39,970 nucleotides of DNA from the UHGV virus genome UHGV-0404708, one strand, 5' to 3'. This DNA comes from a virus. This document shows positions 6,444-37,136 of the stretch, piece by piece; the first letter of the stretch is position 1; the number at the start of each line of letters is the position of its first letter. Under the pieces are notes generated by a model. That model had not been told where the DNA came from, searched no databases, and was given only the letters and a program-made list of their open reading frames with translations. A program made the position numbers and the translations under genes.

Positions 6444-8956
6444 TGCCAGTCGTACCAACAGTATCCGGACGCCAGGTTGAGAGCCGTGGAGTTCAGTCAG
6501 CAGGCTTGCAGACGTTTTCTCAGCCAGGTATTGGTGATGCTTTTGTTCGGGCAGGGACAGAGGCAATTGATGTTTTGGGGCAGGCAAAACAGCGTGCCAA
6601 TATCGCTCTGGCTCAGGAGGCATCTCTTAACCTCAGTCAGATAAGCAGTGATCTGCTGAATAACCCTGAAACAGGTTTGCTTAACCTGAAAGGGAAAAAT
6701 GCTATTGGAAAAGGTCAGGAGTATACGCAGCAGTTTGATGCTCAGGTCGAACAACTGGCTATGTCGCTGCCGGATGAACAGGCTCGTAATGCTTTCATGC
6801 AGCAGGCGCAGCAGCAGCGCATTCAGTTCACTACGCAGGCCGGGCGGCACGAGATAGGGCAAATAAATGCCTACGAAGAAGGCCAGTTTCAGGCGACACT
6901 GCTGAACAATGGTAAAAATGCCGCAGCATTGTATGGCGACAACGCCGCATATGTATTGGCTAATAAGCAAACTTTCCAGCAAATTGAGGATTACGGCATT
7001 GCACATGGCTGGAGTGACGAGCAAATCCAGGCCAAGAAAATCGAGTTTAAAGAAGCAACAGCAAAAGCAACTGCTCAAAATGCTATTGGAGCAAACTATC
7101 TTCAGGTAAGACAGCAAAACGGCGAGTTAAGCGATACTGCTGCTGGATCTCGCCGTGCTGTAGCAGATAGTGGATCTTCCGATCGTACCCGCGGTATACG
7201 CAACAATAACCCCGGAAATCTTGAATACAGCAAAACTAATCCGTGGGTTGGGCAGACTGGTGATGATGGTCGCTTTGCCAAATTCGAAACCCCTGAACAC
7301 GGTATTCGTGCATTAGGGCGGAACCTGATGTCGTATCAGCGGCAGGGTATTGATACCGTCAGTGAGATAATTAATCGCTGGGCACCGCCCACTGATAAAA
7401 ATGACACAATGTCGTATATCAAAGCAGTGTGCGAACAACTTGGCGTTTCTGCTGATGAGCCTCTCGATGCATCTAATCCGGATACCCTGAAGGCGCTTTG
7501 TGCAGCCATTATCCATCATGAAAACGGTAGCCAGCCATACAGTGATCAGCAGTTAACTGCTGGTGTTAGTGCCGCGCTGGGGCTTTCTCAGCTACCGACA
7601 AAAAATAAACGTTATACCGGTGTAGCCTGGTTCGATGCTTTAAGTGAATCAGATCAGGCCAGCGTGTTGCGACAGACTGATGCACTAGCCAGACAACAGC
7701 AGGCTGAATATAAAACGATGCTCGACAGCCGGGTTCGCGATGCGACGGCTGCGTATATGCGTGGCGTTGAATTTCCTAACCCACCTGGTGAGGATGATTT
7801 TATTGCAGCTTATGGAGTCAGAGAAGGAAACCTGCGATATACCGAGTTTAAGAATACGCAGATCGCCGGACAGTATATAGGCTCTTTCCGCAACATGCCG
7901 ACAAGCAGCATTACAGCATATGTTGAGCAATTACGCCCGGATACTGGTGATACAGGGGATGGGTATGCGGCACGCGCAGCTCTTTATGACAACGTTGTTT
8001 CGGCTGCAAATCAGGTGATAAAGCAGCGGCAGTCGGATCCTGTGCAGTTCTCTCTTGCCTCCGGACAGGCAAAGCCTATCGACATGAGCAATAAGGATAA
8101 CTTTGGACAGAGCGTTGCCTTGCGTGCCGCTCAGGTCAGTGACCTTGCTAAGTCATATGGCACTCCACTGACGTTCTTTTCCAAAGACGAGGCCAATCAG
8201 ATCGGTGTTTTCTTTCGTGATGCTCCAGTTTCCCAACAGGCAGCATATCTCGACACCATCAGGCAGAGCACTGGTGGTGGGCAGGTGTATATGTCAGCAC
8301 TACAGCAGATCAGTGCCAACGCTCCATCTGCTGCCGTTGCCGGGATACTGATGGATAAGCCTGGTGGTATTTTGGCAGAAAAAAACTGGTTTAATCCGGA
8401 TGTTTCCGTGTCTCCTGAAACCGCTGCGCAGACAATTCTTGCTGGCGCGGCGGCTCGTAAAGGTGCTGATGATGCGAAAGGTATTCCGATGCCTAAAGAT
8501 GCTGATCTTCGCCTTGAGTTTTCTGACATGGTGAAGGATGCATTTGCTGGTGACGCTCATGGGGCATCAATGGCATACGAGATCGCAAAGGATTATTACG
8601 CTGGTGTGATGGCGAAAAAAGGCGTGGTATCAGGAGAAATTGACAATGATGTCTGGAAACAGGCTGTTAACGTAGCTACAGGTGGCGTGCATGACTATAA
8701 CGGAATGGGGAATGTCCTTTTGCCGTGGGGAATGTCTGCAGAGCAATTCGATAAGCAGGTTAATCAGGCTTGGAATGAACAAGTTGTCGGCTCCGGGATA
8801 AAAACACCGCCTGGTCAGTATGGTTTGCAAAGTTACGGCGATAGTCAGTACCTGGTGAAACTTGGTACTGGTTATCTGCTGAAAGATGATGGTTCTCCCG
8901 TTGTTCTTAATCTGACACAGAAGCGTCAGAGATTCTCCGGAGATATTCCGCAATGA
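6443..8956 (+). CDS. internal virion/core protein with possible cell-wall hydrolase domain
   Basis: Track ORF 6368..8956; ATG 6443 overlaps upstream stop (TAATG); central block with NNPGNL...WAPP motifs (about nt 7180-7560). Confidence 0.55.
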   Translation: MPVVPTVSGRQVESRGVQSAGLQTFSQPGIGDAFVRAGTEAIDVLGQAKQRANIALAQEASLNLSQISSDLLNNPETGLLNLKGKNAIGKGQEYTQQFDAQVEQLAMSLPDEQARNAFMQQAQQQRIQFTTQAGRHEIGQINAYEEGQFQATLLNNGKNAAALYGDNAAYVLANKQTFQQIEDYGIAHGWSDEQIQAKKIEFKEATAKATAQNAIGANYLQVRQQNGELSDTAAGSRRAVADSGSSDRTRGIRNNNPGNLEYSKTNPWVGQTGDDGRFAKFETPEHGIRALGRNLMSYQRQGIDTVSEIINRWAPPTDKNDTMSYIKAVCEQLGVSADEPLDASNPDTLKALCAAIIHHENGSQPYSDQQLTAGVSAALGLSQLPTKNKRYTGVAWFDALSESDQASVLRQTDALARQQQAEYKTMLDSRVRDATAAYMRGVEFPNPPGEDDFIAAYGVREGNLRYTEFKNTQIAGQYIGSFRNMPTSSITAYVEQLRPDTGDTGDGYAARAALYDNVVSAANQVIKQRQSDPVQFSLASGQAKPIDMSNKDNFGQSVALRAAQVSDLAKSYGTPLTFFSKDEANQIGVFFRDAPVSQQAAYLDTIRQSTGGGQVYMSALQQISANAPSAAVAGILMDKPGGILAEKNWFNPDVSVSPETAAQTILAGAAARKGADDAKGIPMPKDADLRLEFSDMVKDAFAGDAHGASMAYEIAKDYYAGVMAKKGVVSGEIDNDVWKQAVNVATGGVHDYNGMGNVLLPWGMSAEQFDKQVNQAWNEQVVGSGIKTPPGQYGLQSYGDSQYLVKLGTGYLLKDDGSPVVLNLTQKRQRFSGDIPQ

Positions 8957-14017: not shown

Positions 14018-14650
14018 TTAATGCAGTTTATCTTTGCTTATAACCAGTAGTCTGTGGGTATGCACATCTTTATCACTGCCCCAACAGAAATCAGCCCACT
14101 GGCTATAGAAATCATCCCATGATGTCATGAAGCTAAGAGGTCTATCTTCTTCAGAGCCATCTGAAACGTATACATTATATCCTGGGGTGTTTATAGCCCA
14201 AGAAATCATTCTTTCCCAGAATCTTCTCCCATCGATTGTTTGTTGCTCATCAGATACAACGATCGCATATTGCTCTAGGAAGAACTGAAAAAAAATCTGA
14301 GGCAAACCATGAACAGCACGGTCATGAATAACATTAGGCGTACGCCATACCATGATCTGCGTACATGTTCTTTTGGCTTCGACGATATCTTCCCGAAAGA
14401 TTAACTTAACCGCATACACCGTTTCTGGAGTATCGCTGGTAGTAATCATTCTGTAATGATCGCCATTACAAGATTTTACAAGGCGATAACCATAAGGTGT
14501 TGTGAATCCCGGAAGAACGAAATCAACCACACCTTTCGCTAAGTAGCTTTCGGTGTGACTAGTGTTCTTCTCAGACATGTTCAGTTTTCTATCGAAATCT
14601 GCTTCTGGGATAATGTATGGCATCGCTTTTCTTGTTGTATTTGTTCTCAT
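14018..14650 (-). CDS. hypothetical protein (unrecognised, accessory)
   Basis: Track ORF 14018..14662; ATG 14650 preferred (SD GGAGGA 5 nt upstream); AT-rich; own operator-like site upstream. Confidence 0.7.
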   Translation of the reverse strand: MRTNTTRKAMPYIIPEADFDRKLNMSEKNTSHTESYLAKGVVDFVLPGFTTPYGYRLVKSCNGDHYRMITTSDTPETVYAVKLIFREDIVEAKRTCTQIMVWRTPNVIHDRAVHGLPQIFFQFFLEQYAIVVSDEQQTIDGRRFWERMISWAINTPGYNVYVSDGSEEDRPLSFMTSWDDFYSQWADFCWGSDKDVHTHRLLVISKDKLH

Positions 14651-14708
14651 TTCGTCCTCCATGTTTGGCTACAGGACGCGTTTTGAAGGGAAGATTAAAA
14701 ATGCTTTC

Positions 14709-14723
14709 TTACCCTTGAGGTAA
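14709..14723. promoter_or_regulatory. operator-like palindrome TTACC-N5-GGTAA
   Basis: TTACCCTTGAGGTAA, exact; upstream of 14018..14650. Confidence 0.5.
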
Positions 14724-14795: not shown

Positions 14796-15515
14796 TCAGA
14801 AGAACCCTGCCTTGTCGTTGATGTACTCCGCGTGCGTCTGGATATCACGCAGGCATTTGCTCACACCGACGATGTAGCAGAACATGGTGGTCAGCTCCGC
14901 CGCCGCGCCCGATACGTCGTGCCCGTCGTCCTGTAACTGGTTCAGCAGATTCATCAGCAGTGAGTTCTCAGTCAGGCCGAGAACACCAGACGGGGAATGA
15001 ATCAGGCTGCGGTAGCCGGGCTTCAGCGGGGCACTGTATTCTTTTTTGTCTTCCAGCTTGATCGCCTCCATAATGGCGGGCATGAATTTTTCAATTACCT
15101 GAGTGGCCTTTGATAAATCAGCTCCACCTGAGAGACGAACATCTCCACTGACATTTGCGGGTTTTCTGTCGAAGTAGCAATCTTCCAGTTTTTCGAAGAC
15201 CTCCCACGCTTTTTCAGTCTCAAGAATTTTCGCATGTCGTGCTGCACCGCGAGCGGTCCATAAGAAAAGATGACTTACTTTTGGTGCAATATTAAGCAAA
15301 CCTCTTTGAGAGGACTCGTTCTTAAATGCTCGTAATTCTTCGCCTGTCAGCTTGAAACAATGTTTTCCCTCAATGAATCGATCTGCATTTCGTTGATAGT
15401 TTTGACGAATCAGTTTGGGTTCTGTGTCATACAAATCAGCAAGCATTTCTGTAGTCATTACAGGGATGTTGCAATGAGTTGTTATCGGCAACTTATCAAT
15501 AGCTATATTACGCAT
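14796..15515 (-). CDS. ORF6N-domain protein with C-terminal domain paralogous to 16329..16586 (antirepressor-like)
   Basis: Track ORF 14796..15530; ATG 15515 preferred (SD GGAGG, 8-nt overlap with upstream stop); N-terminus fits the ORF6N/KilA-N-type DNA-binding pattern; C-terminal ~60 aa align with the 85-aa protein. Confidence 0.65.
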   Translation of the reverse strand: MRNIAIDKLPITTHCNIPVMTTEMLADLYDTEPKLIRQNYQRNADRFIEGKHCFKLTGEELRAFKNESSQRGLLNIAPKVSHLFLWTARGAARHAKILETEKAWEVFEKLEDCYFDRKPANVSGDVRLSGGADLSKATQVIEKFMPAIMEAIKLEDKKEYSAPLKPGYRSLIHSPSGVLGLTENSLLMNLLNQLQDDGHDVSGAAAELTTMFCYIVGVSKCLRDIQTHAEYINDKAGFF

Positions 15516-16014
15516 TTTCATTGCCTCCATCTTTCACGACGAAATAGCAATTATCTTTATAATCTAACTGGATGAACTTTATGTTTTCAGGGAGTTTTAC
15601 AGAAAGAGTTTTTGCACAAGCAAAACCAAAATCTGCGCCAGAAGCATCCATATACCTTAATAATTGTTTTAATGCTGAAGGAGAAAAAGTATCTACCTTC
15701 ACCTCAACAGGGTAACCATCTTTTGTTTTTAGGTCTGGTTGACCTGGTCCACCAAGTATTTCAGCGTTAAGGTATTTTGCTATTTCTGGATAAGCGTTGT
15801 ATTCAGAGCGTAGTTTTGCCTTGTTATCGACTGCTAGTTGCATAAGATGATCAAACAAATTGGTATCTAAATCTGCCCCTTCATCCCACATTCTATTTCT
15901 ACAGCTAATCAATTCACTGACCAGAGGTGCACTTTCTTGCCTTAGCATAAGAAGGAGTGGAGAATTAGAAATTAACCAATACAGATCGTCGTTTGAGATT
16001 TTTTGGCCTGGCAT
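15508..16014 (-). CDS. hypothetical protein, possible PD-(D/E)xK-like motif
   Basis: 168 aa; SD AGAGGT 7 nt before ATG; segment GQPDL...YPVEVK resembles a D...E-x-K nuclease motif (weak); translationally coupled to next gene. Confidence 0.6.
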   Translation of the reverse strand: MPGQKISNDDLYWLISNSPLLLMLRQESAPLVSELISCRNRMWDEGADLDTNLFDHLMQLAVDNKAKLRSEYNAYPEIAKYLNAEILGGPGQPDLKTKDGYPVEVKVDTFSPSALKQLLRYMDASGADFGFACAKTLSVKLPENIKFIQLDYKDNCYFVVKDGGNENA

Positions 16015-16328
16015 AGCGATACCTCTACTAGTAAGTTACCCACCACCGCAACGCCAATTGCTGGTGGTGAACTGGACAAGGTTGGCGTACCGGCCTAGTA
16101 GGTACCGGCGCACCTTTCGGTGCCCCTGCCCAGCCCACCATAATTCGGATATGACTGTGCTATACGCATAAAAAAACCACGTCTGGCGTGGTATGCGCCT
16201 ACTAGTAATCCGGGACGCCAATCCCGGCACTGGATTTTGCCAGTGCCCGATTACTATGGCACAAGAGGAGTGCGATGTAAATTTACCGCAAAGGTAAATA
16301 TAAGCACTCCACTTGGTAATTGCAAACC
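16015..16328 (-). ncRNA. heavily structured intergenic element (candidate ncRNA or cis-regulatory leader)
   Basis: 314 nt without convincing ORF between two minus-strand genes; at least five stem-loops, two with identical hexaloop, one GNRA-type loop, an internal hairpin plus T7 run, 8-bp direct repeat GTACCGGC x2. Confidence 0.35.
16170..16192 (-). terminator. intrinsic terminator-like hairpin inside the structured element
   Basis: Minus sense ACCACG-CCAGA-CGTGGT followed by TTTTTTT; T-tract itself flanked by complementary CGCATA/TATGCG. Confidence 0.4.
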
Positions 16329-16607: not shown

Positions 16608-16623
16608 CTGTATAAATATACAG
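16608..16623. promoter_or_regulatory. LexA (SOS) box
   Basis: CTGTATAAATATACAG; 20-mer AACTGTATAAATATACAGTA matches the E. coli consensus TACTGTATATATATACAGTA at 18/20. Confidence 0.8.
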
Positions 16624-16662: not shown

Positions 16663-16677
16663 TCACCTGAAAGGTAA
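16663..16677. promoter_or_regulatory. operator-like palindrome (one mismatch)
   Basis: TCACCTGAAAGGTAA; abuts the -35 of the LexA-controlled promoter. Confidence 0.4.
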
Positions 16678-16781: not shown

Positions 16782-18803
16782 ATGACGGTCTCAACCGAAG
16801 TTGGCCACAACGAATACACTGGTAACGGCGTTACGACTACATTCCCTTATACATTCAGGGTTTTCGATAAATCTGATCTGGTAGTGCAGATAGTTGACCT
16901 TGAAGAGAATATCACTGTCCTGGTTCTTGATACCGATTACTCAGTAACCGGGGTGGGGGGATACAATGGTGGCAATGTAATGCTGAGGACAGCGTTAACT
17001 TCTGGTTATCGTATTTTTGTATCGCGTGAGCTGCCTGTTACGCAGGAAACAGATCTGCGCAATCAGGGAAAGTTTCTGGCAGAGGTGCATGAGGATGCAT
17101 TTGATAAGCTGACGATGCTTATTCAGCAAGTATTTTATAACCTGAGCAAGGTAATAAAAGTTCCTGAATCAGGGAACTGGTTGGTTCCAACAATTAGGTT
17201 AAGAAAGAATAAAATCTTTGCATGGGACGAAGAGGGAAATCCAATTGCTGTATCACCTGAATCAGGTAGTGCCTCCGATGTAATGATTGAGCTGGCAAAA
17301 TCATCCGGGGCTGGGTTGATTGGCACAACGTCGGGGGGGACCGTTCAATCAGTGCTGGATGACTGTCATGCAAGGCTCATCACATGTGAGCGCAACAGCC
17401 GGGTGGAAAATTTTTACACGCTGGCGGAAACCTGCACAGCGGAGCTTTTATCGCTGAATGCCCCGGAGGCATATGACAAATCCATTACGCTGACGGTCAA
17501 TGAGGAACTGACCACAGACTATACCGGTCCGGTCACAGGTCATTGCAGCATCGGTAATCCGCAGAACTACACCATTGCGATGTGTACGAGCACAACTCTG
17601 GAATATCAGGTTTCCTCGGTGGTACTGGAGAGTGACGGCACGTTCAGTTTCGCCAGAAGCTGGACGGGGGCTAAGTCTTTTAAACTGTATCGTACATCAA
17701 ATAACGGTCTGGTAACCGTCTGGGAAGATCCGCTGTGTATACGTTCTTACCGGATGCCATCGGATGCCGGAGACGAAACGGTAAGGGTAATGAAAGACCG
17801 TACGTACACCTACGACCAGGCGGTGTCGGCCATTGCCCTGATGGCGCAGGGGCACAGTCAGACTGAGCGTTTTGTTCGCGGGTTGTGTGCGATTGTGGGT
17901 AGTGGTGGTAGCGAGGGGAGTGTGCCTTTTTTCGTGAACCGCATGTCAGCGCAGACATCGTCACAGTATTACCGGACGGGAAACGCAGCGTGGGTGGCGT
18001 ATGCGCTGGCGTATTATCTGCTGAAATATCCGGACGGTGAAATGGCCGTTGTTGCCCGGGATAAACTGACGCAGTGCGCAGAATGGATTGAAACGTTCAG
18101 AGTGGCAGACAACGGAGATATTCGTTATGGGTTGTATACATCCGGTAGCGGACGGTATCTGGATGGCGTCTTTTACCCTGATTTTAAAGCAGACTGGTGC
18201 ACATCGGAGCACCAGTTTGATTTGTGGTTTCTGTTTGACCTGATGGGGCGGGTGGGCTTCACCGGCTACGCTGAAAAGGCGAAAGCCCTGGCGGATGCCA
18301 TTATGGAAAAGCTGTGGGTGGAGGATGAAGGGCGATTTTATGCCGGGATGCGAACCACCGGGCCTGACAAGGCCTCACCACTGGACTGTGCAAGCTGGGG
18401 CGGGCTGTTTGTGTCCAATATCGATATGGAAAAAGCCCGGCGGTGTTTTACTTACCTGGACAGATTCTGGTACGCCACGCACGATGCGACAGGGTACACG
18501 CCTTATCATCCGGAATATGGCTACCCGAATAAACAGCGGGGAGTCTGGGTGGAGGGCAGTGCAGGCGTGGCATTGCTGGCCCGTAGACTGGGAGATGATG
18601 CCACCGCGATGGATATTCTGGCGAGGCTGGCACCACTGCGCACACGTTATGGTTACATTGATTCAAGCGATTATCCAGATAATGATGACATGCCGCCGTG
18701 GCCCTCTTCCTGCAACACGGCCTGGATGATACTGGCATGCGATCCGCAGGGGTTCTGGAACGTTGGGGTAAGTAGTCTGTCTGGACGTTATTATAGGTAT
18801 TGA
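16782..18803 (+). CDS. tail fiber/tailspike with T7-type N-terminal attachment domain and a distinct C-terminal domain
   Basis: 673 aa; N-terminus (YTGNGVTTTFPYTF...DTDY) follows the T7 gp17 N-domain pattern; C-terminal ~380 aa Trp/Tyr-rich. Confidence 0.75.
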   Translation: MTVSTEVGHNEYTGNGVTTTFPYTFRVFDKSDLVVQIVDLEENITVLVLDTDYSVTGVGGYNGGNVMLRTALTSGYRIFVSRELPVTQETDLRNQGKFLAEVHEDAFDKLTMLIQQVFYNLSKVIKVPESGNWLVPTIRLRKNKIFAWDEEGNPIAVSPESGSASDVMIELAKSSGAGLIGTTSGGTVQSVLDDCHARLITCERNSRVENFYTLAETCTAELLSLNAPEAYDKSITLTVNEELTTDYTGPVTGHCSIGNPQNYTIAMCTSTTLEYQVSSVVLESDGTFSFARSWTGAKSFKLYRTSNNGLVTVWEDPLCIRSYRMPSDAGDETVRVMKDRTYTYDQAVSAIALMAQGHSQTERFVRGLCAIVGSGGSEGSVPFFVNRMSAQTSSQYYRTGNAAWVAYALAYYLLKYPDGEMAVVARDKLTQCAEWIETFRVADNGDIRYGLYTSGSGRYLDGVFYPDFKADWCTSEHQFDLWFLFDLMGRVGFTGYAEKAKALADAIMEKLWVEDEGRFYAGMRTTGPDKASPLDCASWGGLFVSNIDMEKARRCFTYLDRFWYATHDATGYTPYHPEYGYPNKQRGVWVEGSAGVALLARRLGDDATAMDILARLAPLRTRYGYIDSSDYPDNDDMPPWPSSCNTAWMILACDPQGFWNVGVSSLSGRYYRY

Positions 18804-18826
18804 TTCCTGATAAAGTAATAATTTAA

Positions 18827-18836
18827 CCACATATGG
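18827..18836. promoter_or_regulatory. CCACATATGG motif (CCAYATRTGG family)
   Basis: Within a ~25-bp block nearly identical, in inverted orientation, to 37171-37200; upstream of lysis genes. Confidence 0.35.
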
Positions 18837-18899
18837 TTTATTGTGTATGATGAACTCATCAATAAGTGGGTTCTTCATGCACATTAAACGGTGGTTTTT

Positions 18900-19599: not shown

Positions 19600-20218
19600 A
19601 CAATTCCAGCGAGCTGCTGGTATTAGCGAGGCGCTGGCCGCTCGCTGGTTCTCGCATATAACTTCTGCGATGAAAGAGTTTGGTATCAGCAAAGCAGAAG
19701 ATCAGGCAATGTTTATTGCTCAAGTCGGGCATGAGTCTGGGGGCTTCACCCGGTTGCAGGAAAATTTCAACTACAGCGTCAGCGGACTGGCTAACTTCGT
19801 TCGGGCTGGGCGTCTCACTCAGGGACAGGCTAATGCACTTGGTCGCCGTGCTGGTGAATCACCATTGCCACTCGAGCGCCAGAGAGCGATCGCCAATCTG
19901 GTGTACAGCAAACGCATGGGGAACAATGCCTCTGGTGATGGCTGGAATTACCGTGGCCGCGGACTTATCCAGATTACCGGTTTGAATAACTATCGTGATT
20001 GCGGAAACGGCCTGAAAGTGGACCTGCTGGAGAATCCTGAACTGCTGGCGCAGGACGAATATGCGGCTCGTAGCGCGGCGTGGTTTTTCTCCAGCAAAGG
20101 CTGCATGAAGTATTCCGGAGATATTGTACGTGTAACTCTGATTATCAATGGTGGCAGGAACGGCATCGACGACCGGCGCGCGCGTTACATCACTGCCAGT
20201 AAGGTGCTGGCGGTATGA
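19589..20218 (+). CDS. endolysin, glycoside hydrolase family 19 (chitinase-like) type
   Basis: Motifs [12 protein letters not shown] and [11 protein letters not shown] typical of GH19-type phage endolysins. Confidence 0.85.
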
Positions 20219-20697: not shown

Positions 20698-20870
20698 CAT
20701 GGCATTTTTCATGGTACTGATTTTCGGTGACGGTATATAAAACGGTATGGTGAAAATCAAGTTGCGGAAAGTTGTTATCAGTCAATTGGTTATGTATGTC
20801 GTAAATAATTGAGTGGGAATGATTAACAGCTAACTCATAGCAAATCATTCCTATTCAGATGCCAACTCAA

Positions 20871-20957: not shown

Positions 20958-20972
20958 TTACCTTAAAGGTAT
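20958..20972. promoter_or_regulatory. operator-like palindrome (one mismatch)
   Basis: TTACCTTAAAGGTAT, about 45 bp upstream of integrase start. Confidence 0.4.
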
Positions 20973-25197: not shown

Positions 25198-26015
25198 ACA
25201 TACATATCCTGTTTGCGTGCCCACTCAGGGCGTTTAATAATTTCCACGCCGCCCCATTCATCGCTGATGCGGCATTCGTGATAGGTATTCAGATCCCGGC
25301 GGAACAGAGCGTGCCCGGCATCGACATCCGGCGCATCCAGCTCGAACACGCGTACCGGATACCGACCACAATCAATGCTTTCGCTCACGGCAAGAAAGAA
25401 AAAACCATGCGGCTGACCAGTAACCCTCATTGCGCCTTCGCGGTACATTGCGTCCTGCACGTGGTAGCGGAATTCCTCGATGTGGCGTGCAAAACGGTCC
25501 ATATCTGCAACCTTTTTCACGTCGACGATCACGTTGTGCTCGTTCAGCCATTTGTCTGGACGAATTCGGCACAACTCACCCGTCTCTTCATCGTTCCAGT
25601 ACATTGATGCTTCGCAGTAACCAGGTGCTTCCAACATCCAGCGCGCCGCCGGATGAGCCATTGCGCTATCACGCATCAGCTCCAGTTTTCGCCACTGCTC
25701 GACATCAAGTACCGTAATACCCATATCCGCCACATCACGAAGAAATGCTTCTTCGTGAGCTTTACCTTGTTTTGTCCGACGATCGAATTTCGGTGAAACA
25801 ATGAAGCGTTTGTCGAACTCTCCAGGCTCCAGAAGCAGACAGTGCAATGCGGTTCCCATATCTAGTGCAGACTTTTTCTCTTCGTCTTCTGGTGCTGCCT
25901 GAACCCATTTAAGAAGCGCCGGATTCTTGGCTACCATGTCCAGTTGCGACTTACTCACGCCGTCACCGGCGTGGTAGTCTTCGTTGCTGATGTCGAAATA
26001 AATTCCCGGTTTCAT
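25194..26015 (-). CDS. recombination exonuclease (RecE/YqaJ-like), partner of RecT
   Basis: 273 aa; nuclease-like N-terminal region; immediately upstream of and coupled to RecT. Confidence 0.6.
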   Translation of the reverse strand: MKPGIYFDISNEDYHAGDGVSKSQLDMVAKNPALLKWVQAAPEDEEKKSALDMGTALHCLLLEPGEFDKRFIVSPKFDRRTKQGKAHEEAFLRDVADMGITVLDVEQWRKLELMRDSAMAHPAARWMLEAPGYCEASMYWNDEETGELCRIRPDKWLNEHNVIVDVKKVADMDRFARHIEEFRYHVQDAMYREGAMRVTGQPHGFFFLAVSESIDCGRYPVRVFELDAPDVDAGHALFRRDLNTYHECRISDEWGGVEIIKRPEWARKQDMYV

Positions 26016-26311
26016 GCCGCGTCCCTCTGTCCATCAAGCTGATCCGCCAGATCCCAGCGGGCGATAATTACCATTGCCTCGCGCCGGTAGGCATCCATTA
26101 GTTCTTCGAACTCAGGGCTGTCTTTAGCGGCCTCCAGTACTTCCTGGCGAACGCCTTTAACTGTTACAACGTCAAAAGTTGATGCCAGTTGATGAAGCCG
26201 GATACTCTCAATCAGTTCAACTTGTCGGTCATATAGCTGTTCTGACAGGCGGTAGTCCTTGTCGAATGCCAGCATGATTTTTTGAAGATTTTTCTGCTGA
26301 TTAACGTTCAT
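26012..26311 (-). CDS. hypothetical early protein
   Basis: Track ORF 26012..26326; ATG 26311 preferred (SD GGGAGGG); ATGA overlap with next gene. Confidence 0.55.
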   Translation of the reverse strand: MNVNQQKNLQKIMLAFDKDYRLSEQLYDRQVELIESIRLHQLASTFDVVTVKGVRQEVLEAAKDSPEFEELMDAYRREAMVIIARWDLADQLDGQRDAA

Positions 26312-26313
26312 TA

Positions 26314-26466
26314 TCAGCCCTCCCATATCTCGTTATCGTTGGCCACATCGCGAGCTTCTTTGCTGACGAAAGCCCACTTGATGCCTTCCTGTAAGGTGCG
26401 GAACTTCCAGCTCATGAATCCGCATGCAGTAACGCAGTACCAACCGTTGATGATTTTCCACTGCAT
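26314..26466 (-). CDS. small hypothetical protein (50 aa), first gene of leftward early operon
   Basis: Not in track (under 60 aa); ATG 26466 with SD GAGGT 8 nt upstream, immediately downstream of promoter/operator; translation MQWKIINGWYCVTACGF... Confidence 0.4.
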   Translation of the reverse strand: MQWKIINGWYCVTACGFMSWKFRTLQEGIKWAFVSKEARDVANDNEIWEG

Positions 26467-26485
26467 AACTTGTTACCTCGGTCTG

Positions 26486-26500
26486 TTACCGTTGAGGTAA
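26486..26500. promoter_or_regulatory. operator (OL-like), TTACC-N5-GGTAA
   Basis: TTACCGTTGAGGTAA exact; overlaps predicted start region of leftward promoter. Confidence 0.6.
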
Positions 26501-26501
26501 T

Positions 26502-26528
26502 AATTATGCGTATCTGGTTTGATGTCAA
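26502..26528 (-). promoter_or_regulatory. leftward early promoter (PL-like)
   Basis: Minus sense -35 TTGACA (26523-26528), 15-17-nt spacer, -10 ATAATT/TAATTA (26502-26508); flanked by two operators. Confidence 0.55.
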
Positions 26529-26547
26529 TAGATATGAGTTAAAAAAA

Positions 26548-26562
26548 TTACCCGTCAGGTAA
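26548..26562. promoter_or_regulatory. operator (OL-like), TTACC-N5-GGTAA
   Basis: TTACCCGTCAGGTAA exact; about 20 bp upstream of the -35. Confidence 0.6.
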
Positions 26563-26573
26563 TCAATCTGGCA

Positions 26574-26598
26574 ATAAAAAAGCCGCCAGAAGGCGGCT
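26574..26598 (-). terminator. rho-independent terminator after repressor gene
   Basis: Minus sense GCCGCC-TTCT-GGCGGC followed by TTTTTT. Confidence 0.7.
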
Positions 26599-26619
26599 TA
26601 CTTGCTGAAAACTATAGTT

Positions 26620-27204
26620 TTATTGTTTGCTTTTTTCGTTCTGGTTGATGACAAATTCAATGTAACTTTCGATCTTTGCTTTCTCGGTTTCGGGTAACAA
26701 TGCGTAGCGCGAGCGGTCATAGTTGATGGTCGCAGGGTCGTGCGGGTGAATCAGTAATTCATAGCCGTGACGCCCGAATGCGGATGCAACATTCTCCAGG
26801 GTGGAAATGGAAACGCTGACCTCATTGTTTAACAGGCGGCTGATTGTCACCTGGGCGACGCCGGATGCGCGGTGAAGTTTTCCCTGCGTTGAAAGGTCGC
26901 GGCTTTCGCTCATCCAGCGTTCCAGGTTGTGAGCCGCCAGCTGACCAATGTCGCTTGGGCCGACAGGCTGAAAACCTTCCTGAGAAAGCGAGCGATCGAT
27001 ATCAAGCCAGTTACGGGGTTTATTGGCGGCAGCTTCAATTTTTCGTGCAACCTGGTCGCCGATAACCTTCTTGCCAAGAGCCCAGCGGTTTACCAGATTT
27101 GCCTGAGTTCCAAGTTTTTCTGCCATCCGCGTCTGAACACCATTGAATTCACGGTCGATCAAGTCGTTGAGATTTTGCCTGCGGACGTCCTGGATACTTT
27201 TCAT
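26620..27204 (-). CDS. immunity repressor with two HTH-type segments, no autopeptidase domain
   Basis: 194 aa; HTH-like segments near aa 24-46 and 120-155; divergent from Cro-like gene across operator region; no Ala-Gly...Ser...Lys LexA-type cleavage module. Confidence 0.7.
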   Translation of the reverse strand: MKSIQDVRRQNLNDLIDREFNGVQTRMAEKLGTQANLVNRWALGKKVIGDQVARKIEAAANKPRNWLDIDRSLSQEGFQPVGPSDIGQLAAHNLERWMSESRDLSTQGKLHRASGVAQVTISRLLNNEVSVSISTLENVASAFGRHGYELLIHPHDPATINYDRSRYALLPETEKAKIESYIEFVINQNEKSKQ

Positions 27205-27259
27205 TTTCTGGAAAATCGCCTCATATATGAATCAGTAGATGATTCAATTTAAAGCAATA

Positions 27260-27274
27260 TTACCCAACAGGTAA
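27260..27274. promoter_or_regulatory. operator O1 (OR-like)
   Basis: TTACCCAACAGGTAA exact. Confidence 0.6.
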
Positions 27275-27276
27275 AT

Positions 27277-27291
27277 GCACCTCATGGGTAA
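27277..27291. promoter_or_regulatory. operator O2 (OR-like, one mismatch)
   Basis: GCACCTCATGGGTAA; centre 17 bp from O1. Confidence 0.5.
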
Positions 27292-27307
27292 CTATTCTTG
27301 ATTTTTG

Positions 27308-27322
27308 TTACCTTATGGGTGA
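27308..27322. promoter_or_regulatory. operator O3 (OR-like, one mismatch)
   Basis: TTACCTTATGGGTGA; in spacer of the predicted rightward promoter (-35 TTGTTA 27305-27310, -10 TATTAT 27328-27333). Confidence 0.5.
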
Positions 27323-27358
27323 ATATTTATTATCTGAAATAAATATCAGGCAATAGCT

Positions 27359-27589
27359 ATGAGCGATAACGGACATTTCGATTTCAAAAAGCACTGGCTT
27401 GCACTTACTCCGGATGAGCGTGAAGCCTTCGCACAGGAAGCCGGAACGACGAGTCACTATATCCAGACTCACTTAACAGGTAAGCGCAAAATGCCAGGTA
27501 AAGTATTGATGAATGGGCTTTTTAAAGCCTGTAAAACAAGACAATGGCTGCGCTCAAAAGCAGAACTGGCATACTTCTTCTACTCATGA
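27359..27589 (+). CDS. Cro/YdaS-like small DNA-binding protein
   Basis: 76 aa, divergent from repressor across tripartite operator; followed by terminator. Confidence 0.6.
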   Translation: MSDNGHFDFKKHWLALTPDEREAFAQEAGTTSHYIQTHLTGKRKMPGKVLMNGLFKACKTRQWLRSKAELAYFFYS

Positions 27590-27610
27590 TATCCAGCTAC
27601 AACCCTCTGT

Positions 27611-27634
27611 AGACCGCCACCCGGCGGTCTTTTC
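27611..27634 (+). terminator. rho-independent terminator (tR1-like)
   Basis: AGACCGCC-ACCC-GGCGGTCT followed by TTTT. Confidence 0.7.
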
Positions 27635-27644
27635 ATATCTATTC

Positions 27645-27659
27645 GTACCTCAAAGGTAA
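27645..27659. promoter_or_regulatory. operator-like palindrome (one mismatch)
   Basis: GTACCTCAAAGGTAA just after the terminator. Confidence 0.4.
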
Positions 27660-27739
27660 TAAAAAACCAAATCTGGTTGATCTTTTTTTTGTGTCAGCAC
27701 AAAATGACCGTAATCCCAATACTAATAACAGGGCTTACC

Positions 27740-27940
27740 ATGGAAATCATTACACGTATTGATGCCGCAAAGCGCGGACTTAAACGCTACTACACCGGAA
27801 AACCATGTAAGCATGGACATGACAGTGAACGCTGGGTTTACAACGGACACTGTGTTGAGTGCACCATGGAATCAAACCGTCGCATCAGGGCAGAGATTAA
27901 GCAGATCATGATTAATTCCTCCCCACAACACTCAAGCTGA
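27740..27940 (+). CDS. small Cys/His-rich protein (possible zinc-binding regulator)
   Basis: Track ORF 27677..27940 (TTG); ATG 27740; CKHGH...CVEC cluster. Confidence 0.45.
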   Translation: MEIITRIDAAKRGLKRYYTGKPCKHGHDSERWVYNGHCVECTMESNRRIRAEIKQIMINSSPQHSS

Positions 27941-27955
27941 TAGCGGAGATTAATC

Positions 27956-28789
27956 ATGAGCAGACATGCAACAGATTGGGCCTGGGAGACAGATCCAGGT
28001 AGCTCATCATTAAAGCTCATACTGCTCTCGATGGCTGACAGAGCCGATGAATATAACCTCTGCTACCCCAGCATAGAACGCCTCGTTAAAGACACTTGCC
28101 TGAATAAAAAAACCGTGCAGGCCGGGCTTATATCGCTCATGAAAATGGGGCTTATTTCAGATACCGGAGAGAGAAAGGGAGCGACAAAAAGAGTGCGGGT
28201 TTTCTCTCTTAATATAACCAAAAACGGGAACATTAAAGGCAACCTGGAGGGGGGCAATGAACCCGAAAACGGTAATGTTACCGAAAACGGGAATATACCC
28301 AAAAACGGGATGTTGAATGATCCCAAAAACGGGATGTTGAATGATCCCAAAAACGGGATCCAGAACCAGTCATATAACCAGTCATTTAACCAAGAGAGGG
28401 AGAGCAGGACAAAAACCGGGGATTCTGTTCCTCATGACCCCGGCGCAAACAACGCCGTGATGAATAACTTTGTTCCTCCTGGTTGGCCAGGGCAATTAGG
28501 CAAATTTGTCATGCATGAACAATGGCAGCCATCAGATGACTTTCTTCGGAAAAGCTCATTGCAGGGAATCTACCTGGACAGTCTGCCAACGGCACAGGAA
28601 CTTGCAGAGTTCAGAATTTACTGGATGGCTGAGGGTAAGGCATACCATCAGGCACAGTGGGAGCAGAAGCTGGCAAGGCGCATCCAGTTCTGTAGACAGA
28701 AATCAGGTGAAGTCAGAAAGAGCCTTGACTGGCATAACACTGACTGGATAGATGAGGTGTGGGATGAAATCAACTCCAGAACTTCTTAA
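27956..28789 (+). CDS. replication initiator/replisome organizer (O-like) with internal iteron-encoded repeats
   Basis: 277 aa; N-terminal HTH-like region; central tandem PKNGMLND repeats; C-terminal F..WQP-type segment; directly precedes P-like gene. Confidence 0.6.
   Translation: MSRHATDWAWETDPGSSSLKLILLSMADRADEYNLCYPSIERLVKDTCLNKKTVQAGLISLMKMGLISDTGERKGATKRVRVFSLNITKNGNIKGNLEGGNEPENGNVTENGNIPKNGMLNDPKNGMLNDPKNGIQNQSYNQSFNQERESRTKTGDSVPHDPGANNAVMNNFVPPGWPGQLGKFVMHEQWQPSDDFLRKSSLQGIYLDSLPTAQELAEFRIYWMAEGKAYHQAQWEQKLARRIQFCRQKSGEVRKSLDWHNTDWIDEVWDEINSRTS
28217..28360. repeat. iteron array (candidate origin of replication) inside initiator gene
   Basis: Six copies of AAAACGG(G/T) core starting 28221, 28266, 28284, 28302, 28326, 28350 (spacings 45, 18, 18, 24, 24), two forming an exact 24-bp tandem. 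Confidence 0.55.
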
Positions 28790-29583: not shown

Positions 29584-29598
29584 TTACCTATAAGGTAA
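29584..29598. promoter_or_regulatory. operator-like palindrome
   Basis: TTACCTATAAGGTAA exact. Confidence 0.5.
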
Positions 29599-29645
29599 CA
29601 AAATATTCTAAACTCTATTGATTTCGTGTCTTATGTGGTTTTTAA

Positions 29646-29660
29646 TTACCTTAGAGGTAA
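29646..29660. promoter_or_regulatory. operator-like palindrome overlapping the SD of 29664..30008
   Basis: TTACCTTAGAGGTAA exact; right half-site doubles as GAGGT Shine-Dalgarno 3 nt before ATG. Confidence 0.45.
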
Positions 29661-29663
29661 ATC

Positions 29664-30008
29664 ATGAGAAAACAGATACAGGCTCTTGGTCGACTCAAAA
29701 CAGGCCAGATGAACAAAACAGAATCTGCGTATTGCCAGCACCTTGAGCTGCGTAAACGTGCAGGGGAAATCGCCTGGTATCGATTCGAGGGTATCAAGCT
29801 GCGGTTGGCTGACAACACGTTCTATACGCCCGATTTCGCTGTGATGCTCGCCACCGGCGAGATGGAACTGCACGAAGTGAAAGGTTTCTGGACCGACGAC
29901 GCCAGGGTGAAAACCAAAGTCGCAGCAGACCAGTACCCGTTTCGCATCATCGGGGTAACGGTTAAGACAAAGAAAGCGGGTGGTGGGTGGAGCATCGAAG
30001 AGTTCTGA
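29664..30008 (+). CDS. DUF1064-like small nuclease-fold protein
   Basis: 114 aa; YRFEGIKLRL...FYTPDF...HEVKG pattern as in lambdoid DUF1064 proteins. Confidence 0.55.
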   Translation: MRKQIQALGRLKTGQMNKTESAYCQHLELRKRAGEIAWYRFEGIKLRLADNTFYTPDFAVMLATGEMELHEVKGFWTDDARVKTKVAADQYPFRIIGVTVKTKKAGGGWSIEEF

Positions 30009-32438: not shown

Positions 32439-32588
32439 ATGGCTAAGTACATCGTGACTATCGAAGGATTTAATGATTGCAAGGTTGTTGAGTTTGAAGC
32501 AGACACGCCAGAGGATGCCGAAGAAATAGGCAGAGACATATTCTATGAAGAATGCAACTACGGCGTATCACCTGCTACAGAGGACTAA
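32439..32588 (+). CDS. small hypothetical protein (49 aa)
   Basis: Not in track; ATG 32439 with junction-repeat SD GGAGAG 6 nt upstream; translation MAKYIVTIEGFNDCKVVEF... Confidence 0.4.
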   Translation: MAKYIVTIEGFNDCKVVEFEADTPEDAEEIGRDIFYEECNYGVSPATED

Positions 32589-33176: not shown

Positions 33177-33544
33177 TGGACTATTCACAGTTAAGTGATT
33201 TTGAAATTAACAGAATGGTAGGAGACATAATTTTTAAAGGCCTTTGGGCGTGTAAACCGGAAACATCAGGGAATAACACCAACAAATGGTATTACGGAAA
33301 TACTGATACAACTTTTGAGCCATTAAACCCTTTACCTGACTACTGCAATGATCCGAGAGCTGCATGGCCTGTAATCGCAAAACATCAGATCAGCATATGT
33401 GCATACGAAAGAAATAATCATGGAATGAAGAATGAATATTGGTGGGAGGCGGATAGATTTTGTGAATTTATTACCATAGACAATAACCCACTACGCGCCG
33501 CCATGATTGTCTTTCTCATGATGCAGGAAAATCAGAATGGCTAA
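33176..33544 (+). CDS. hypothetical protein
   Basis: Track ORF 33116..33544; ATG 33176 overlaps upstream stop (TGATG). Confidence 0.5.
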   Translation: MDYSQLSDFEINRMVGDIIFKGLWACKPETSGNNTNKWYYGNTDTTFEPLNPLPDYCNDPRAAWPVIAKHQISICAYERNNHGMKNEYWWEADRFCEFITIDNNPLRAAMIVFLMMQENQNG

Positions 33545-33883: not shown

Positions 33884-33924
33884 GAGTAGATTATGCATGA
33901 TGAATTTGATGGGTTTTGAATACT

Positions 33925-33950
33925 GCCGCCAACTATGGCGGCTTTATTTT
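33925..33950 (+). terminator. rho-independent terminator before terminase operon
   Basis: GCCGCC-AACTAT-GGCGGC followed by TTTATTTT. Confidence 0.7.
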
Positions 33951-33961
33951 GCATGGTACTA

Positions 33962-33976
33962 TTACCACAACGGTAA
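33962..33976. promoter_or_regulatory. operator-like palindrome upstream of terminase genes
   Basis: TTACCACAACGGTAA exact; a weaker copy TTACCACGGTGGTTA follows at 33980-33994. Confidence 0.5.
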
Positions 33977-33993
33977 CTATTACCACGGTGGTT

Positions 33994-34590
33994 ATGATGC
34001 CTGCTGAACCTAAAACCTATAAACGCAAATCAACGCAATTTAAGCCACTAACAGCAATGCAGGAGGCTTATTGCCAGTCATACATCAAAACGCCTGAAAA
34101 CCAGACTCAGGCAGCGATTAACGCAGGATTTTCCCCAAATACAGCGGCAGTTAAAGCCAGTGTCATGATGCGCGATGAACGCATTCAAAAACGGATTGCC
34201 GAGTTGATGGAGGAGCGCAACAAACGAATACGCGTCAGTGCTGATTACGTTCTCATGCGGCTGGTGGAGATCGACCAGATGGACGTGATTGATATCCTCA
34301 ACGACGATGGGAGCCTTAAGCCAATCCGCGAGTGGCCGAAAATCTGGCGCACTACGCTTAGCGGCTTTGATCTGTCATCGACCATCATGAACATGAACGA
34401 GGATTCGATAGAGACAATCCTCAAAAAAATTAAATGGCCTGACAAGGTGAAGAACCTCGAACTGATTGGTAAGCACGTCGACGTCAACGCATTCAAAGAA
34501 CGCCTAGATGTTAATGTGAATGTGACAATTGCTGATCGCATAGCAGCAGCCAGGAAGCGACTCAAAGAACGTCAGGATGGTAATCAGTGA
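33994..34590 (+). CDS. terS: terminase small subunit
   Basis: Track ORF 33916..34590; ATG 33994/33997; small-terminase-like composition; stop overlaps terL start. Confidence 0.7.
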   Translation: MMPAEPKTYKRKSTQFKPLTAMQEAYCQSYIKTPENQTQAAINAGFSPNTAAVKASVMMRDERIQKRIAELMEERNKRIRVSADYVLMRLVEIDQMDVIDILNDDGSLKPIREWPKIWRTTLSGFDLSSTIMNMNEDSIETILKKIKWPDKVKNLELIGKHVDVNAFKERLDVNVNVTIADRIAAARKRLKERQDGNQ

Positions 34591-36722: not shown

Positions 36723-36799
36723 TGGCGTGGCATGCAGGATTCGAACCTGCGACCAACCGCTTAGAAGGCGGTTGCTCTGTCTAACTGAGCTAATGCCAC
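36723..36799 (-). tRNA. tRNA-Arg (anticodon UCU)
   Basis: Minus-strand read GTGGCATTAGCTCAGTTAGACAGAGCAACCGCCTTCTAAGCGGTTGGTCGCAGGTTCGAATCCTGCATGCCACGCCA folds as cloverleaf: 7-bp acceptor, GCTC/GAGC D-stem, ACCGC/GCGGT anticodon stem with loop CU-UCU-AA, GCAGG/CCUGC T-stem with TTCGAAT loop, encoded CCA. Confidence 0.9.
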
Positions 36800-37121: not shown

Positions 37122-37136
37122 TTACCTGAAAGGTAA
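37122..37136. promoter_or_regulatory. operator-like palindrome
   Basis: TTACCTGAAAGGTAA exact; intergenic between tRNA and portal operon. Confidence 0.5.

Follow-up and report, generated by a model that had tools for sequence, protein, structure and literature searches.

Palindromic operator candidates of an SPC32H-type repressor dispersed over the genome of a phiV10/epsilon15-like phage

Among the described lysogeny switches, the Rep-Ant switch of phage SPC32H (PDB 5D50, 5D4Z) is the closest counterpart of the immunity region considered here. In one report, the repressor Rep of SPC32H is divided into three domains, for DNA binding (N-terminal), dimerisation (middle) and tetramerisation (C-terminal); the last of these also binds the antirepressor and has a p53-like "TetDloop" fold, which is tied to DNA looping in a homologous regulator (PMC9986798). 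A second report describes binding of Rep to palindromic sites as a tetramer, in which the DNA-binding pairs come from different dimers (PMC9638917). The virus genome UHGV-0404708 (39,970 nucleotides, all of it analysed and hereafter called the window) contains rep, a gene for a 194-amino-acid (aa) homologue of this repressor, and inverted repeats of the form TTACC-N5-GGTAA around it. The present analysis concerns these palindromes. They are considered to be operators of Rep throughout the genome, Rep being an SPC32H-type repressor that would be removed by the SOS-controlled antirepressor Ant; from sequence evidence, the probability of this reading is put at roughly 0.8.

The window and SPC32H are alike in Rep, in Ant, in the LexA box before ant and in gene order. 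The SPC32H genome also carries TTACC-N5-GGTAA at equivalent places and spacings, a likeness read from the genome and not from mapped operators. The differences are as follows: the two Reps are ~43% identical; the window has a degenerate O2 (the middle one of three sites next to rep), an extra site after the terminator of the neighbouring gene gp41, and a larger antirepressor module with C4 and isrK RNAs; it has neither the third site of the leftward operator region (OL) nor the site before the lysis genes. Three of four features of the SPC32H-type switch were found in the window: a Rep with helix-turn-helix (HTH), dimerisation and tetramerisation parts and no S24 peptidase, an Ant of ~86 aa, and the LexA box. 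By analogy, Rep of the window would bind the palindromes as a tetramer and would be released by Ant. To our knowledge, the structure of a Rep-type tetramer has been solved, but its DNA-bound mode has not.

Sequence identity over the region amounts to 98% with Escherichia phage phiV10 and ~15 phages close to it, and to 77% with Enterobacter phage Tyrion. In epsilon15, the identical palindrome is similarly scattered (terS, head genes, ant/tail fibre, leftward promoter, resolvase gene), and seven copies are annotated as "protein_bind, repressor, lysogeny" in the RefSeq record NC_004775. Not annotated in this record are the three sites between rep and gp39, the partner site at 35969, and those that precede int and the lysis genes. 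The records of phiV10-type phages have no operator annotation at all.

Palindromes and their probable ligand

Sites were read directly in positions 25800-28200, and were collected by a window-wide pattern search for TTACC-N5-GGTAA with at most one mismatch. The search gave 15 matches against 0.70 expected, and none of 100 shuffled sequences reached this number. When all hyphenated inverted repeats with 5+5 arms and spacers of 0-12 were compared, the nine exact copies of TTACC-N5-GGTAA put it in first place, ahead of an unrelated repeat with three. Ten matches (14709, 16283, 16663, 20958, 27645, 29584, 29646, 33962, 33980, and 37122) are outside the region covered by a preliminary description of this DNA, and one, at 17969 inside the tail-fibre gene, is probably a chance match. 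The 14 credible matches and O2 at 27277 make up 15 sites at ~10 loci, mostly at the starts of gene blocks, with the consensus (A)TTACC-N5-GGTAA(T). All 15 are in the non-coding 11.5% of the window; this count takes the ATG at 33996 as the terS start, which the epsilon15 annotation supports.

The preliminary description had dealt with the immunity region and had missed that the motif also occurs beyond it. Its exact operators at 26486, 26548, and 27260 were recovered both by direct reading and by the pattern search, and its spacings of 17 and 31 bp between the three sites next to rep are correct from start to start. It had also assigned one mismatch each to the sites at 27277 and 27308. This is right for O3 (27308), whereas O2 (27277) has two mismatches to the 15-mer, and one only when the core TACC-N5-GGTA is used. 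With a position weight matrix trained on exact sites from other genomes, O2 ranked only 16th, and ~1.9 equal or better hits are expected by chance. Therefore, O2 stands on its position and conservation and not on its score: the same position, 17 bp from O1, is occupied by an exact site in epsilon15, SPC32H, and BUCT711.

A scan of phiV10, Tyrion, epsilon15, SPC32H, and Klebsiella phage BUCT711 gave 13-18 sites per genome, against ~0.6 expected, in syntenic positions. Shared places are one site each before the head genes and between ant and the tail-fibre gene, and the one-mismatch site before int. The pair 18 bp apart before terS is common to phiV10, Tyrion, and epsilon15. The triplet next to rep has spacings of 17 and 30-31 bp in the relatives. 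The pair around the leftward promoter is 62 bp apart (63 bp in BUCT711), and the second pair, before the DUF1064/resolvase gene, is exactly 62 bp apart.

When the rep/gp41 region was aligned for five genomes, 26 of the 30 half-site columns were invariant, compared with 4 of 15 in the centres and 62 of 130 elsewhere (Fisher p = 8e-5). Variation was also counted in 72 distinct sequences of IMG/VR relatives with Rep at least 99% identical. Variable columns amounted to 2/50 in the half-sites, 12/25 in the centres and 46/232 in other intergenic sequence; the half-sites differ from the other intergenic columns with p = 0.006 and from the centres with p = 1e-5. The half-site columns of O2 showed no variation among these relatives, and its centre varied at four positions. 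This is the pattern of the other sites and supports O2 as a weak site.

If the repeats bound no protein, they would have to be chance occurrences, promoter-associated sequence or RNA hairpins. Several of them do overlap -10 hexamers, or the Shine-Dalgarno sequence at 29646, with which they could share conservation. The enrichment is, however, ~20-fold, at a count that no shuffle reached, and both half-sites are kept while the centres vary. Arms of 5 bp with a loop of 5 nt are too short for stable hairpins, and the sites, some of which precede -35 elements, occur in both orientations with respect to transcription. An origin without protein binding is thus hardly credible.

As for the protein, residues 1-190 of Rep align to residues 2-197 of SPC32H Rep (PDB 5D50_A) over the full length with E = 3.5e-42; the C-terminal half is aligned with the dimerisation and tetramerisation domains. 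The Pfam search of Rep gave HTH families only, and no S24 peptidase domain. Although five Reps have an overall identity of only ~43%, all of them share the recognition-helix stretch NLVNRW without change, which fits the invariant operator half-site. A search of IMG/VR with Rep for divergent relatives returned only loci with Rep 99-100% identical, and was useless for following covariation of helix and operator. Rep is the putative binder at each site. In phage ZX5, which has an identical repressor, transcripts of endolysin and holin fell by more than 99.9% when the repressor was overexpressed; the same functional paper on the phiV10 lineage states that the action of repressor and antirepressor "remains to be unraveled" (PMC9782041).

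The gp41-like protein, encoded in the cro position, has to be considered as another ligand. It gave no Pfam match. Its AlphaFold2 model (20 homologues; pLDDT 86) has five helices in an HTH fold, and its top Foldseek matches are all of the XRE/lambda-repressor-like HTH class (434 repressor DNA-binding domain, YdaS, P22 c2), with TM-scores of 0.55-0.62 and non-significant E-values of 0.5 or worse. Position and predicted fold class make a Cro-type role plausible. It might then be gp41, or another phage or host factor, that mainly or additionally binds the palindromes, with Rep at only a subset of them. The putative recognition helix TTSHYIQTH is nearly invariant at 76% overall identity between the window and epsilon15, as would suit an invariant target, and lambdoid Cro proteins share the operators of CI. 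On the other hand, the recognition helix of Rep is equally invariant, it is the repressor that is named for these sites in the epsilon15 record, and sites at late, int, and ant promoters suit a lysogenic silencer better than an early lytic protein. A host factor is disfavoured by a 14.5-kb host flank, which contains zero exact sites. Such an assignment of the sites seems unlikely, and Rep is preferred as the ligand.

Promoters and paired operators

The -35 element TTGATT of the rightward early promoter is invariant in five genomes. As had been described, the third site, O3, lies in the spacer of this promoter (TTGATT-17-GAATAT), where it reaches into the -10 element. The promoter scan itself proposed an alternative, TTGTTA-17-TATTAT, which overlaps O3 (Table 1).

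For rep, the promoter scan found no minus-strand promoter with at least 9 of 12 matches within 27205-27360. The candidate promoter given in Table 1 agrees with the consensus at 7 of 12 positions. In the window, phiV10, Tyrion, epsilon15, SPC32H, and BUCT711, which represent four clades, its -10 element TAAATT always lies 8 nt from O1; apart from the rightward -35 TTGATT, it is the only element at a fixed distance from O1 in all four. Used as the -10 of rep, TAAATT would predict a start at ~27239, a leader of ~35 nt and negative autoregulation. The preliminary description had noted a gap of 55 bp between O1 and the repressor ATG and no convincing Shine-Dalgarno sequence before it, both of which are borne out: no usable one was found before the rep ATG in any of the four clades, the sole GAGG being 14 nt upstream. 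The leaderless maintenance transcript that it had considered is not favoured, since the conserved TAAATT would imply a leader. TACAAT occurs 4 nt before the rep ATG in epsilon15 and SPC32H, and is absent in the lineage of the window.

Two other features of this region should be mentioned. A seven-codon upstream open reading frame (MRRFSRK; 27201-27224, minus strand) ends in a TGA that shares bases with the rep ATG (ATGA). It is confined to the phiV10 lineage, being absent in Tyrion, epsilon15, and SPC32H, and was rejected as meaningful: it is probably not functional. After the gp41 stop, a minus-strand promoter-like sequence, TCTACA-16-TATCAT (9/12; 27586-27613), points through gp41 toward rep; its position recalls that of lambda P_RE.

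On the other side of rep, the leftward TTGACA promoter between two operators, as previously described, was recovered by the promoter scan (10/12 matches); in the alignment of the OL region, both TGTCAA and the ATTAT of its -10 are invariant. Since the last base of the -10 is also the outer base of the proximal operator, the leftward +1 would be at ~26493, which is the operator centre; all transcription starts given here were deduced from hexamer positions. A +1 on the operator centre is predicted at four promoters, namely at the operators 26486, 29646, 16283, and 14709. Furthermore, the pair at the promoter 29618-29646 is the mirror image of the leftward geometry, with operators at +1 and -62. 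The sites called OL-type in the preliminary description are not a cluster of adjacent sites as in lambda but a pair 62 bp apart, whose fixed geometry recurs at 29584/29646.

A third leftward operator is present in epsilon15 (32479-32493) and SPC32H (33528-33542), 76 bp beyond the proximal one and just before the first leftward gene. At this place BUCT711 (~7262-7275) has TTACC-ATTT-GGTAA with a 4-bp centre, and the window, phiV10, and Tyrion have a lone TTACC half-site (26473-26477 in the window).

Eleven further pairs from five other genomes were compared: ten have a spacing of exactly 62 bp and one has 63 bp, despite divergence of the sequence in between. This geometry is kept in phages of Escherichia, Enterobacter, Salmonella, and Klebsiella despite the ~43% identity of the Reps. 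Since 62 bp is close to six helical turns, the spacing is held, and the Rep tetramer has two DNA-binding pairs according to PMC9638917, we infer that a single tetramer may bridge both operators, closing a small loop over the promoter. LacI, GalR, DeoR, and pLS20 Rco, the last with a TetDloop domain (PMC9986798), likewise combine a tetramer with paired operators at integral helical turns that enclose a promoter; the loop proposed here would be at the short end of known loops.

The distal site might instead act alone, as a roadblock, through an antisense promoter (TTGATG-18-AAAAAT, with its +1 on 26555) or by raising the local concentration of Rep. Both distal sites come directly after terminators, and a weak rightward promoter-like element centres on 26548. 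A loop of 62 bp is very tight and energetically costly. The constant 62-63 bp across diverged intervening sequence, its nearness to six turns and the two DNA-binding pairs of the tetramer speak against independent action, and the antisense promoter-like element is not kept at the second pair. Action without a loop is thus somewhat doubtful, and bridging by the Rep tetramer is preferred.

Table 1. Coordinates of operators, promoters, genes, and RNAs in the window
Feature	Position	Strand	Sequence or elements	Remarks
Operator	14709-14723			Exact; centre = predicted +1 of leftward promoter with -10 TACTAT, before 214-aa open reading frame 14018-14662
Second antirepressor module	14796-16246	-		isrK-like RNA, C4 antisense RNA, 168-aa open reading frame, 244-aa antirepressor
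244-aa antirepressor	14796-15530	-		phrog_1760, E 1e-97; Pfam ORF6N
168-aa open reading frame	15508-16014	-
C4 antisense RNA	16060-16145	-		RF01695, 76.7 bits
isrK-like Hfq-binding RNA	16170-16246	-		Rfam, 68 bits
Operator	16283-16297			Exact; centre = predicted +1 of leftward TTGCAA-17-TATATT heading the isrK/C4/large-antirepressor block
ant, SPC32H-type antirepressor, 85 aa	16329-16586	-		PDB 5D50_E, E 3.5e-46; ~85% identical to SPC32H Ant
LexA box	16608-16623		CTGTATAAATATACAG	Perfect; 22 nt upstream of ant ATG
Operator	16663-16677			One mismatch; between ant and tail-fibre gene; abuts -35 TTGCAA of ant promoter
Near-operator	20958-20972		TTACCTTAAAGGTAT	Right half GGTAT; 43 bp before int, 134 bp right of attP core
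First leftward early gene, 50 aa	26314-26466	-		= phiV10 gp39; phrog_898
OL proximal operator	26486-26500		TTACCGTTGAGGTAA	Exact TTACC-N5-GGTAA; centre 26493 = predicted +1
Leftward early promoter	26500-26528	-	-35 TTGACA (26528-26523), 17 bp, -10 AATTAT (26505-26500)	Promoter scan
OL distal operator	26548-26562		TTACCCGTCAGGTAA	Exact; centred at ~-62 of leftward promoter
Intrinsic terminator after rep	26580-26599	-		Terminator scan; conserved in alignment; separates rep from leftward early promoter
rep, repressor, 194 aa	26620-27204	-		ATG at 27204; N-terminal HTH, middle HTH-like dimerisation domain, C-terminal tetramerisation/Ant-binding tail
Candidate rep promoter	27246-27274	-	-35 TTACCT (27274-27269, within O1), 17 bp, -10 TAAATT (27251-27246)
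O1	27260-27274		TTACCCAACAGGTAA	Exact; operator nearest rep
O2	27277-27291		GCACCTCATGGGTAA	Two mismatches; degenerate left half, GCACC...GGTAA; 17 bp from O1
Rightward early promoter	27298-27326	+	-35 TTGATT (27298-27303), 17 bp, -10 GAATAT (27321-27326)
Alternative rightward promoter of the scan	27305-27333	+	TTGTTA-17-TATTAT	Overlaps O3
O3	27308-27322		TTACCTTATGGGTGA	One mismatch; in spacer and -10 of rightward promoter
gp41-like, 76 aa	27359-27589	+		cro position; phrog_35 "transcriptional repressor", E 5.6e-13
Terminator after gp41	27611-27630	+		Terminator scan
Operator	27645-27659		GTACC...GGTAA	Single; between gp41 terminator and replication genes; in phiV10 and Tyrion, not in epsilon15 and SPC32H
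Distal operator, second pair	29584-29598			Centre 29591 at -62; just after terminator that follows P gene
Rightward promoter before DUF1064/resolvase gene	29618-29646	+	-35 TTGATT (29618-29623), 17 bp, -10 TTTAAT (29641-29646)
Proximal operator, second pair	29646-29660			Centre = predicted +1, ~29653; overlaps GAGG ribosome-binding site of gene starting at 29664
Two operators, 18 bp apart	33962-33994			33962 exact, 33980 one mismatch; directly before likely terS ATG at 33996
Operator	37122-37136			Single, exact; before head-gene block; syntenic in all relatives

Antirepressors and the proposed switch

Rep is a homologue of SPC32H Rep without a peptidase, and ant and its LexA box are both present. 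The switch therefore appears from its genes to be of the antirepressor type, driven by Ant and linked to SOS, not one of RecA cleavage. Kim and Ryu are said to have reported in 2013 that LexA controls ant in SPC32H.

This bears on the lambda-type CI/Cro frame of the preliminary description. Such a switch would have a graded tripartite rightward operator (OR), a self-activated leaderless repressor transcript, cleavage through RecA and an auxiliary OL of adjacent sites. Operator sites around divergent early promoters were rightly recognised, and it is the lambda frame that does not hold. With lambda, P22, and 434 the window shares divergent early promoters flanking the repressor, three palindromes between the divergent genes with one within the rightward promoter, and, in the cro position, a small protein whose predicted fold is an all-helical HTH like that of Cro/434. 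The missing Shine-Dalgarno sequence of rep, and TACAAT close to its ATG in epsilon15 and SPC32H, are in keeping with such a switch too. However, TACAAT is lacking in the lineage of the window, and two features of the lambda type are absent there, the S24 peptidase of an autocleaving repressor and the confinement of operators to OL and OR: Rep is homologous to a repressor controlled by an antirepressor, whose gene is present with a LexA box, and operators are found at ~10 loci, including late, int, and antirepressor promoters. In addition, the two OL sites are 62 bp apart, one on either side of the promoter, and not adjacent. The OR spacings are 17 and 31 bp, not 23-24 bp. The strongest OR site, O1, adjoins the repressor gene and overlaps the only conserved -10/-35 candidate, which points to autorepression. 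A lambda-type switch is judged to be very improbable.

A second antirepressor module lies downstream of the leftward promoter whose predicted +1 is the centre of the operator 16283, with the two RNAs in front (Table 1). Its 244-aa antirepressor resembles the small Ant in residues 163-236 (43% identity; BLASTP E = 3e-16), and phrog_450 is matched by both proteins. Because of this resemblance of the C-terminus, the phage seems to possess two proteins with the Rep-binding Ant domain: one gene is behind the LexA box, and the other is behind a Rep operator and two regulatory RNAs. The module resembles the c4-icd-ant operon of P1 immI in its layout of genes and RNAs, a C4 RNA upstream of the antirepressor gene and an operator on the predicted +1. 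Phage P1 immunity, to which the system comes nearer in this respect than to a lambda-type switch, also has dispersed operators of one repressor, and a repressor-controlled promoter that heads the C4 RNA and then the antirepressor. The operators of its C1 repressor are, however, asymmetric 17-mers, P1 is a plasmid prophage, and C1 is not known to be related to Rep.

In the SPC32H-type switch favoured here, Rep would not be cleaved in SOS. The host LexA would hold ant off, and the small Ant, once made, would pull Rep off the DNA. Rep at O3 would occlude the rightward early promoter, and Rep at O1 would cover the -35 and the spacer of the likely rep promoter, leading to negative autoregulation. 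O2, between them, would be weak in this lineage. At the leftward promoter and at the promoter 29618-29646, the tetramer might hold the operators at +1 and -62 and loop the promoter. Further operators would act before the replication genes, terS, the head genes, int, ant, and the second antirepressor operon. Rep would then silence most transcription units directly and not via a lambda-style cascade.

Several points weigh against this scheme. Some of the hexamers are weak: the rightward -10 is GAATAT, the -10 at 29641 is TTTAAT and lacks the -11 A, and the rep promoter has the low agreement mentioned above. The cost of so tight a loop is a difficulty, and the conservation of operator 29646 could be due in part to its overlap with a ribosome-binding site. 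The operators could also serve gp41. Control of every unit by Rep is an overstatement, as the window is without a Rep site before the lysis genes. A more far-reaching version can be put forward only tentatively and is held to be slightly less probable than its opposite: one tetrameric repressor would gate most units by dyads centred on +1, with the -10 on the outer base, and by 62-bp micro-loops at two promoters, and operators on the promoters of both antagonists would make induction a doubly locked feed-forward process.

This is not a new kind of system: its palindrome, its antirepressor, and its family of repressors had been described before in Salmonella relatives. Compared with public annotation, the operator map of the phiV10 lineage, the OR triplet and the partner sites, the +1-on-dyad module, and the 62-bp pairs are possibly new; part of the map may already be published in the primary epsilon15 and SPC32H papers. 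phiV10-like prophages, which change the O-antigen, occur in about one tenth of complete E. coli genomes, and the map offers concrete targets for footprinting, chromatin immunoprecipitation, and reporter work.

Other loci and form of the genome

The region was found in 562 of 5426 complete E. coli genomes, where the prophage adjoins guaA. The window itself was tried as an integrated prophage in host DNA and this was rejected. Positions 1-24000 are phage DNA: 80% of them match phiV10 (structural, tail-fibre, lysis, and integrase genes), and the attP core, taken from PMC9782041, is intact at 20808-20824. By these sequence matches the window is therefore classed as the permuted phage-form genome of a phiV10/epsilon15-like temperate podovirus of the genus Uetakevirus.

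The near-operator at 20958 has an identical single mismatch, GGTAT, in all five enterobacterial relatives, including phiV10, Tyrion, epsilon15, and SPC32H. It might serve Rep as a weak site for the control of int, or else belong to the arm architecture of attP. The operator at 16663 is syntenic with the annotated site 19895-19911 of epsilon15. For the single operator at 27645, a proximal partner at 62 bp was looked for by reading the sequence, and none was seen. Before terS, a start at the equivalent of 33916, as annotated in phiV10, would enclose a terminator (33923-33950) and both operators; the ATG at 33996 is the likelier start, in agreement with the annotation of epsilon15 and SPC32H.

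Inspection of 18800-18890 revealed no Rep site before the lysis genes, unlike in the relatives. Where these carry the Rep site TCACC-N5-GGTAA before the lysis cassette, the window has another palindrome, AACCACATATGGTT, at 18826-18839. The O-antigen acetylase gene, which phiV10 has between the tail-fibre and lysis genes, is absent in the window. A tRNA-Arg gene (anticodon TCT; 36723-36799, minus strand) was identified by ARAGORN and Rfam between the terminase and head genes.

A different motif, TATRTGGTT, occurs in five copies (16330, 16709, 18825 on the minus strand, 29632, and 37180) against 0.42 expected, and none of 100 shuffles reached five. All copies are intergenic and just upstream of gene blocks (tail fibre, lysis, the 29664 operon, and head genes), usually followed by (G)TAAT within 2-7 bp. 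This motif may serve as a promoter element of middle or late genes, or as the binding site of an activator.

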